From Escherichia coli (GTDB lineage: Bacteria > Pseudomonadota > Gammaproteobacteria > Enterobacterales > Enterobacteriaceae): a stretch of 64,000 nucleotides of DNA. Numbering within the stretch: position 1 is the stretch's first letter; the number at the start of each line of letters is the position of its first letter. Below the pieces are notes generated by a model. That model did not search any database. It saw only the letters and a program-made list of their open reading frames with translations, and was not told the origin of the DNA. The stretch is from assembly GCF_003334785.1 (NCBI RefSeq), contig NZ_QOWV01000018.1. The stretch is one strand, 5' to 3'. Below, piece after piece: positions 47,274 through 49,148 of this stretch. The position numbers and the translations under genes were made by a program.

Positions 47274-48470
47274 ATGCTAAAAGTGTTATTGCTCTTTGTG
47301 TTGCTGATTGCGGGGATCGTGGTTGGCCCGATGATTGCCGGCCATCAGGGTTATGTGCTGATCCAGACCGACAACTACAATATCGAAACCAGCGTCACGG
47401 GCCTGGCGATCATATTGATTCTGGCGATGGTAGTGCTGTTTGCCATTGAGTGGCTACTGCGGCGGATCTTCCGCACTGGCGCGCACACCCGTGGGTGGTT
47501 TGTCGGACGTAAGCGTCGCCGTGCACGTAAGCAGACCGAACAGGCGCTGCTGAAACTGGCGGAAGGCGATTATCAGCAAGTTGAAAAGCTGATGGCGAAA
47601 AATGCCGATCACGCGGAACAACCGGTGGTGAACTATCTACTGGCTGCCGAAGCCGCGCAACAACGTGGTGATGAAGCACGCGCCAACCAACATCTGGAAC
47701 GCGCAGCGGAGCTGGCCGGCAACGACACCATTCCGGTAGAAATCACCCGCGTACGTCTGCAACTGGCCCGTAATGAAAACCATGCTGCACGCCACGGCGT
47801 GGATAAGCTGCTGGAAGTTACGCCACGCCATCCGGAAGTATTACGTCTGGCGGAACAGGCGTATATCCGCACAGGTGCATGGAGTTCGCTGCTGGATATT
47901 ATCCCATCAATGGCGAAAGCCCATGTTGGTGATGAAGAACATCGTGCAATGCTGGAACAACAGGCATGGATTGGCCTGATGGATCAGGCGCGTGCCGATA
48001 ACGGTAGCGAAGGTTTGCGTAACTGGTGGAAAAACCAAAGCCGGAAAACGCGTCATCAGGTAGCGTTGCAGGTGGCAATGGCGGAACATCTTATTGAATG
48101 TGACGATCATGATACTGCCCAGCAAATTATCATCGATGGCCTGAAACGCCAGTACGACGATCGCCTACTGCTGCCGATTCCTCGACTGAAAACAAACAAT
48201 CCGGAACAGCTGGAAAAAGTGCTGCGCCAGCAAATCAAAAACGTCGGCGATCGCCCGCTGTTGTGGAGCACACTGGGCCAGTCACTGATGAAGCACGGAG
48301 AATGGCAGGAAGCATCGCTCGCCTTCCGCGCAGCGCTGAAACAACGTCCGGACGCCTACGATTACGCATGGCTTGCCGACGCGCTGGACAGACTGCACAA
48401 GCCGGAAGAAGCTGCAGCGATGCGTCGCGACGGTTTGATGTTAACGTTGCAGAATAACCCGCCACAGTAG
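47274..48470 (+). CDS. hemY: HemY, TPR-containing inner membrane protein (398 aa)
   Basis: ORF 47274..48470; starts 2 nt after the hemX stop; MLKVLLLFVLLIAGIVVGPMIAGHQGYVLIQTDNYNIETSVTGLAIILI. Confidence 0.92.
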   Translation: MLKVLLLFVLLIAGIVVGPMIAGHQGYVLIQTDNYNIETSVTGLAIILILAMVVLFAIEWLLRRIFRTGAHTRGWFVGRKRRRARKQTEQALLKLAEGDYQQVEKLMAKNADHAEQPVVNYLLAAEAAQQRGDEARANQHLERAAELAGNDTIPVEITRVRLQLARNENHAARHGVDKLLEVTPRHPEVLRLAEQAYIRTGAWSSLLDIIPSMAKAHVGDEEHRAMLEQQAWIGLMDQARADNGSEGLRNWWKNQSRKTRHQVALQVAMAEHLIECDDHDTAQQIIIDGLKRQYDDRLLLPIPRLKTNNPEQLEKVLRQQIKNVGDRPLLWSTLGQSLMKHGEWQEASLAFRAALKQRPDAYDYAWLADALDRLHKPEEAAAMRRDGLMLTLQNNPPQ

Positions 48471-48517
48471 TTCCTTCTCACCCGGAGGCAAGCACCTCCG
48501 GGGCCTTCCTGATACAT

Positions 48518-48724
48518 AAAAAAACGCCTGCTCTTATTACGGAGCAGGCGTTAAAACAGGTCTGTATGACAACAAGTGGGTGCTTCACTCAACGTTGTGT
48601 CCATGGTGTCTGATGAGGCATAAGCGACATCTGTCAGTGGACGATAAGCACCGTAAACGGCTCTGCGTCATTCCGGAGTTTATGAGGCACTAAGGCGAAC
48701 ATAAGAGATGGAATGAGCATCTAC
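48518..48724 (-). ncRNA. glmZ: GlmZ small RNA (SraJ/RyiA), post-transcriptional activator of glmS
   Basis: Minus strand reads GUAGAUGCUCAUUCCAUCUCUUAUGUUCGCCUUAGUGCCUCAUAAACUCCGGAAUGACGCAGAGCCG...CAUACAGACCUGUUUUAACGCCUGCUCCGUAAUAAGAGCAGGCGUUUUUUU, which I recognise as GlmZ. It ends in an intrinsic terminator (hairpin gcctgctc-cgtaataa-gagcaggc plus U7), has a -10-like CATAAT just upstream (plus 48731..48736), and sits in the known hemY-aslA intergenic location. Confidence 0.88.
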
Positions 48725-49148
48725 TCGTTTATTATGCCACAGAGAATCGGGAAATAACATCCCTTAACACTTGTTATGAGATAATTCTGTAATCCTCTTT
48801 GCTTCCTGAGTAATAACTTCCTGAGTGAATATTTAACCTGAGCTTGATCCTACACATACTTATTATGAATGATAAAATTCATTCAATTAATAACACATAT
48901 ATTAATTGCCGTTAAAACTAAAAACAGCATCAATAATCAACGCGATATAATAAACCTGCCTTACATATCAACTGCGCCAGAGGTAGGATTGAAAACGCTC
49001 TCCTGATTTTCCAATTCATTTTCTGGATAAATAAATAATTTATTTTTGTCACTATTATTTATGTAATCATCCTGTCAGGGAGAGGGATCTCAATTATCAA
49101 TGCTTAATTACGTCATCATTTTGATGACATGAAACCGGAGCATTTTGC

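Follow-up and report, generated by a model that had tools for sequence, protein, structure and literature searches.

The perfect 7-3-7 inverted repeat GTCATCA-TTT-TGATGAC (GTCATCATTTTGATGAC) that precedes aslA in E. coli is, in our assessment, best explained as an incidental, Escherichia-restricted and weakly constrained inverted repeat without a dedicated regulatory role, a reading to which we assign a probability of about 0.5. The repeat occupies positions 49112–49128 of the window, by which we mean the whole stretch of 64,000 nucleotides that was analyzed, and corresponds to NC_000913.3 3986028–3986044. Its position and arms are exactly those of the original prediction, which had also correctly placed the GGAG Shine-Dalgarno (SD) sequence of aslA (49137–49140, plus strand) and the palindrome about 20 nt before the aslA ATG (20 nt when counted from the palindrome end). 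The coding sequence of aslA (arylsulfatase AslA, b3801) extends on the plus strand from 49149 to 50804 as an ORF of 551 aa, its ATG corresponding to the complementary strand of NC_000913.3 at 3986007. The window represents E. coli K-12, and a 601-bp stretch around the palindrome is 100% identical to BW25113 and NEB5-alpha.

The region of ~420 bp that had been described as an AT-rich leader is indeed AT-rich (32.5% GC for 48730–49148 versus 52.8% in the window), but it represents the entire intergenic spacer between the divergent genes glmZ and aslA (48725–49148, 424 bp, 32% GC) rather than a known aslA leader transcript. The sRNA gene glmZ is encoded on the minus strand at 48518–48724 (Rfam RF00083, 218.4 bits, full length) and was the sole Rfam match over 48300–49400 at E ≤ 1; its terminator hairpin (48523–48552) is located a short distance past the stop codon (48470) of the convergent hemY. 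Rfam matches 207 nt of GlmZ, and the 172-nt form alone is annotated in RefSeq. The nearest annotated genes are hemX, hemY, glmZ, aslA and aslB, with hemX and hemY upstream and aslB convergent on aslA from the other side. Residing in the shared divergent spacer, 388–404 bp upstream of the glmZ start, the palindrome might be thought of as a far-upstream glmZ control element, for example a leftover GlrR or IHF site, an idea to which we give practically no credence. Goepel et al. 2011 (PMC3045617) found that the glmZ promoter of E. coli does not require any sequence beyond −40 and that GlrR does not bind to −424..+32; Escherichia is devoid of the GlrR, IHF and sigma-54 motifs. These published deletion and EMSA data effectively exclude a contribution of the palindrome (−388 to −404) to the control of glmZ.

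The mere presence of the palindrome before aslA is not beyond chance frequency. The window contains 10 perfect 7-3-7 palindromes versus 4.9 ± 2.1 expected from Markov-1 simulations, one of them in the same spacer only 83 bp upstream (49029–49045). If loops of 0–10 nt are allowed, 94 repeats with 7-bp arms are found versus 53 ± 11 in Markov-1 simulations; the roughly 2-fold elevation of perfect 7-bp-arm inverted repeats thus seen window-wide probably reflects terminators and similar elements. A repeated palindromic element of the REP/BIME type could be ruled out, since the 41-mer spanning 49100–49140, present in 5,411 of 5,426 complete E. coli genomes, is single-copy with a median of 1 place per genome among these 5,411. 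Further copies of the palindrome with up to two mismatches are lacking in the 64-kb window. Permitting up to three mismatches yielded 7 matches versus 2.2 expected, which we do not accept as regulon sites, as all matches other than the palindrome itself have three mismatches and are more than 5 kb away.

Allele-specific searches over the 5,411 complete genomes carrying the 41-mer revealed that the perfect form found in K-12 is shared by 3121 genomes (58%), the remaining 42% of E. coli genomes having asymmetric versions. The most frequent of the latter, GTCATCATTTTGACGAC (…TGACGAC; B2 strains, including ST131 and Nissle), was found in 1269 genomes and contains an A·C mismatch that reduces the predicted stability of the isolated hairpin from −6.4 kcal/mol (K-12) to −4.2 kcal/mol. 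A second strain group of 666 genomes carries GTCAACATTTTGACGAC (GTCAACA…TGACGAC; −3.9 kcal/mol), where the second substitution has shifted the register and given rise to a new repeat, the perfect 5-4-5 GTCAA/TTGAC. In O157:H7 (344 genomes) the allele is GTCATCATTTTGTTGAC (…TGTTGAC), with a T·T mismatch and a hairpin energy of −2.1 kcal/mol. Thus, judged by these energies, all three common derived alleles weaken the K-12 stem.

Orthologous loci were retrieved by scanning GTDB species genomes that encode AslA. In E. whittamii, as in the likewise divergent Escherichia genomes E1V33 and SCPM-O-B-8794, the sequence is GTCATCCATTTAATGAC, with a 5-bp stem. Strain E69 has GTCGTCGTTTTGATGAC, where two A-to-G changes both leave G·U pairs, and E. 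albertii has GACATCAATTTGATGTC, in which the complementary double change T2A/A16T together with T8A generates a perfect 8-1-8 palindrome. In total, eight distinct palindrome alleles occur in the genus Escherichia; positions 2, 4, 5, 7, 12, 13, 14 and 16 are variable, and the outer G-C, N-N and C-G pairs are retained in every allele. Beyond Escherichia, the syntenic glmZ-aslA spacers of Pseudocitrobacter, Kluyvera, Superficieibacter and one further enterobacterium lack the palindrome. These spacers measure 300–500 bp (about 400–430 in most), and all they have in common with their Escherichia counterparts is the GGAG and the ATG, the former being invariant in 19 of 19 aligned enterobacterial orthologue leaders. 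The aslA loci of Salmonella arizonae and Citrobacter are non-syntenic. The check proposed earlier, conservation across aslA orthologues, therefore shows the palindrome to be imperfect in 42% of E. coli genomes and missing outside Escherichia. By and large, the lack of conservation in close relatives that had been named as refuting evidence is thus observed.

These comparisons bear directly on the suggestion that the palindrome is an operator for an unknown regulator, i.e., the binding site of a dimeric transcription factor that acts as a repressor or an activator of aslA. We disfavor this suggestion and consider it quite improbable. The perfect dyad symmetry of 7 + 7 bp close to the gene start in K-12 does resemble the inverted-repeat operators of dimeric repressors, perfect symmetry is kept in E. 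albertii, and the location, with a conserved block on the upstream side and the ribosome-binding site on the other, is one where a repressor could block transcription. Unlike in such operators, the half-sites vary among strains, differing in 42% of E. coli genomes and in cryptic-clade sequences, and what would be the contact positions are those listed above as variable within the genus, at a rate equal to that of the spacer background. In addition, regulon copies are lacking in the window, where no second site with up to two mismatches was found, the homologous spacers of sister genera do not contain the palindrome, no regulator is encoded among the nearest annotated genes, and searches of the literature on aslA retrieved none that binds here. 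On comparison with FNR, CRP, Fur, IHF, PmrA, NikR and other E. coli operator consensus sequences, we recognized none that would fit the palindrome.

How strongly the palindrome is constrained relative to its surroundings was assessed in an alignment of the whole spacer from 9 Escherichia sequences. Invariant columns amount to 58% (0.58) of the spacer and to 9 of 17 in the palindrome, which is the spacer background rate. In the same 9 sequences, 32 of 37 columns are invariant in the upstream flank (49075–49111), as are 20 of 23 from 49129 through the start codon. Judged from this alignment, the constrained aslA-proximal sequence is represented by the flanks, that is, the block 49075–49111 and the ribosome-binding region, and not by the palindrome. 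The conserved 37-bp block, TCAGGGAGAGGGATCTCAATTATCAATGCTTAATTAC, adjoins the palindrome upstream and contains the tandem heptads TCAATTA-TCAATGC, with an extra TCAATTA copy in strain Tig228. If the palindrome is incidental, the present result only removes a candidate and points to the conserved flanks instead.

Several alleles nevertheless changed in a symmetric manner, and this deserves consideration. In E. albertii, each of the three changes either maintains the symmetry or adds to it, a pattern that is unlikely under independent random substitutions (probability of ~0.002–0.005 by our rough estimate). Template-switch correction of quasi-palindromes yields symmetric changes without selection. 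Work by Ripley and by Lovett and colleagues is said to have established quasi-palindromes as mutational hotspots, at which imperfect inverted repeats are corrected by template switching. Our case is similar in that the repeat is short with a 3-nt spacer, shows paired changes (E. albertii) as well as the re-registered GTCAA/TTGAC, and lacks sequence conservation. It is dissimilar in that the substitution density is at the spacer background and not elevated, and the mechanism would be deduced from the alleles only. Drift or template-switch correction, rather than selection, may thus be the origin of symmetric changes like the double substitution of E. albertii.

The main alternative to an incidental repeat is a selected leader hairpin, with the palindrome as part of an SD-masking stem-loop of 46 nt that keeps AslA translation low or makes it dependent on an opening factor. 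We regard this as possible, yet clearly doubtful. The structure in question is an extended imperfect stem-loop predicted for plus-strand RNA at 49099–49144 in the putative aslA leader, the palindrome forming its apical stem. In the predicted fold of 49098–49146,.(((((((..(((.(((((((...))))))).))).....))))))). (−14.0 kcal/mol), a basal helix pairs AAUGCUU (49099–49105) with GAGCAUU (49138–49144) and thereby covers three of the four SD bases (GAG), and a middle helix pairs UUA (49108–10) with UGA (49130–32); the palindrome hairpin, folded by itself as RNA, is predicted at −6.4 kcal/mol. The z-score of −4.17 obtained for this fold refers to a 49-nt window that was chosen after the structure had been seen, which counts against giving it much weight. 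The stem-loop persists in folds of 86 and 211 nt, for which the whole-segment z-scores of −0.54 and −0.95 are unremarkable, and it ranks in the top 0.7% for stability among 1,802 windows of 49 nt with GC content within ±5%, taken from both strands of the 64 kb. Moreover, the overall stem-loop shape is common to all Escherichia alleles (−9.6 to −14 kcal/mol), neither strand of the basal helix varies within the genus, and the compensatory change in E. albertii and the G·U-preserving changes in E69 would suit a selected hairpin as well.

Against selection of such a hairpin stand the covariation and shuffling analyses. A pair-by-pair count over seven distinct alleles gave 87.8% paired cells versus 85.4 ± 2.2 in 500 shuffles, with 127 of the 500 shuffles reaching as high, so that covariation is not significant. 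Among the seven alleles a double change occurs at a single pair only, and the basal helix, being invariant, is uninformative here. The predicted SD pairing of 0.74 in Escherichia is likewise not above that obtained with shuffled upstream sequence (mean 0.62–0.70; 30–50% of shuffles as high). Furthermore, the stem positions vary at the neutral spacer rate, the derived alleles weaken the stem, and the conserved block upstream (49075–49111) extends far beyond the 7 nt needed by the basal helix. An SD pairing of 0.98–1.0 with different leaders in Pseudocitrobacter, Superficieibacter and S. arizonae (the last at a non-syntenic locus) might be taken to support SD masking in aslA leaders more generally. 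The fraction of shuffles reaching these values was 0.00–0.02 for Pseudocitrobacter, 0.04 for Superficieibacter and 0.09 for S. arizonae, and the masking is not outstanding relative to shuffles in Escherichia or Kluyvera. With Pseudocitrobacter and Superficieibacter as the only clear cases and S. arizonae as a marginal one, we did not accept SD masking as a conserved theme. In Pseudocitrobacter, ACTCCTTCA is found at the position homologous to the left arm, some 30 nt ahead of the SD of aslA, and pairing between its CUCC and the GGAG of the SD is predicted (P = 1.0; 0–2% of shuffles as high). Based on these predictions, the anti-SD arrangement of Pseudocitrobacter is different from and stronger than that of Escherichia.

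SD-masking leader hairpins are reportedly exemplified by the MS2 coat gene, for which de Smit and van Duin are said to have described translational attenuation by mRNA secondary structure. The aslA stem-loop is comparable insofar as its predicted terminal helix pairs three of the four SD bases immediately 5' of the start codon, and a predicted stability of −14 kcal/mol is within the range that lowers initiation. It differs in that the structure is a prediction that lacks covariation and has SD pairing at the level of shuffled sequences; in addition, the apical stem, i.e., the palindrome, makes no contact with the SD, and no opening trigger is known. A function as an RNA thermometer is not indicated, as no melting is predicted in silico (SD pairing of 0.74, 0.73, 0.72 and 0.71 at 20, 30, 37 and 42 °C). 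An intrinsic terminator was also dismissed: only two of the seven stem pairs are G-C, the sequences following the stem (plus strand, ATGAAACC; minus strand, GTAATTAA) provide no U tract, and the terminator scan does not report the palindrome. The original view that the palindrome might form a 5'-UTR hairpin affecting translation therefore holds as far as physical plausibility is concerned, given a stem-loop of −14 kcal/mol that includes the SD, but it does not find backing from covariation, from SD pairing above the shuffle level or from a mapped transcription start site (TSS).

With regard to the latter, no aslA TSS is entered in the SMRT-Cappable-seq, Kim 2012 and Mendoza-Vargas 2009 supplements, nor in the part of the Cappable-seq supplement that was available to us; the 3'-end map of Adams 2021 has no 3' end at the palindrome, so that neither a terminator nor an attenuator is detected there. 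These datasets provide a further argument against the selected leader hairpin. A candidate σ70 promoter for aslA, CTTACA-18-TAGGAT, is predicted on the plus strand at 48960–48989. It came from a scan that combined conservation with an ad hoc scoring matrix; each of the 12 hexamer positions is identical in the 9 Escherichia sequences, and the 18-bp spacer varies. Initiation from this candidate promoter near 48996 would, we infer, give a leader of ~153 nt that includes the palindrome. Shimada et al. 2014 (PMC3946193) listed another aslA promoter, TTAACA-18-TGTAAT, located far upstream, which is likewise a prediction and not a mapped start. The same study reported binding of RpoD holoenzyme and H-NS to the aslA<>glmZ spacer in genomic SELEX in vitro (PMC3946193). 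This, together with the GC content of 32.5%, supports the earlier remark on AT-richness and H-NS for the spacer as a whole. The spacer thus resembles H-NS-silenced AT-rich promoter regions in base composition (32% GC) and H-NS binding (PMC3946193); the SELEX binding concerns the whole spacer, and nothing ties H-NS to the palindrome. Searches of the literature for aslA in conjunction with promoter, H-NS, glmZ or SELEX retrieved no regulator or site described here, and an effect of RpoE on aslA in E. coli K1 was reported in one paper as indirect only. The only aslA RNA 3' end listed by Adams et al. 2021 lies 1108 nt inside the gene (MG1655 3984899, window ~50257), which implies some aslA transcription in K-12 as well as an internal termination or processing site.

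A transcription start closer to the palindrome, near 49108–49112, would make the palindrome the first structure of the mRNA, where it could protect the transcript from 5'-end-dependent decay. The 5' stem-loop of ompA mRNA confers protection of this kind. Conservation of the block 49075–49111 would fit such a start, as would the weak candidate promoter CTGTCA (49072–49077)-18-TATCAA (49096–49101), both hexamers of which, as read from the sequence, share 4 of 6 positions with the consensus. This hexamer pair appeared in neither promoter scan (for the second scan, among its top 15), the start has no TSS support, and B2, O157 and cryptic-clade sequences have a weak or disrupted stem, all of which renders a 5'-terminal stabilizer very improbable.

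Returning to the incidental repeat, this reading does not deny that the palindrome may fold. If transcribed, it would form the tip of the 46-nt stem-loop, the base of which would cover the GAG of the SD, and the resulting passive reduction of AslA translation would add to the silencing of the promoter region by H-NS. The retention of the outer pairs, the symmetric changes in E. albertii, the GTCAA/TTGAC repeat, the G·U pairs of E69, the top-0.7% fold and the invariant basal strands are compatible with weak selection on the hairpin. If the palindrome indeed caps a genus-specific SD-masking leader, then natural alleles may give different AslA output, since the whole stem-loop is predicted at −14 kcal/mol in K-12 and E. 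albertii versus about −10 kcal/mol in B2 (Nissle, ST131), the GTCAACA group and O157; we consider such allele-dependent output unlikely. If true, it could be relevant to E. coli K1, for which aslA is reported to have a role in brain endothelium invasion. A genuine leader hairpin would by itself represent ordinary damping of translation by mRNA structure on a poorly expressed and often lost gene, its wider interest lying in allele-dependent AslA expression in extraintestinal pathogenic strains.

The aslA gene itself is frequently inactivated. In 9 of 30 evenly spread E. coli genomes (e.g., RM9975), only the first ~138 nt of aslA are left, with aslB following close behind, meaning that aslA is truncated in about 30% of the complete E. 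coli genomes sampled; in O157:H7, it is annotated as frameshifted. Such frequent loss implies that constraint on the aslA control region is probably weak. In some strains (20AR0300, XJW9B277), an IS1 copy is inserted in the glmZ-aslA spacer. The IS1 end in 20AR0300 abuts CTTAATTAC (~49103 of the window), immediately before the palindrome; in addition, the SD of this strain has changed from GGAG to GAAG.

Two further features of the spacer were noted. An ATG at 49129, directly after the palindrome, opens an out-of-frame ORF of 64 codons and is replaced with AGG in strain E69. Farther upstream, the block GAGGTAGGATTGAAAACGCTCTCCTGAT (48980–49007 of the window) is highly conserved in Escherichia. 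It is 81% complementary to GGAGAGGGATCTCAAT, 75 nt downstream (49079–49094), and also complementary to aslA codons 4–6, CGTTTTCA (49159–49177); these complementarities could reflect a long-range leader structure or protein sites. The block also contains a 5-codon mini-ORF, TTG AAA ACG CTC TCC TGA, behind a GAGG.
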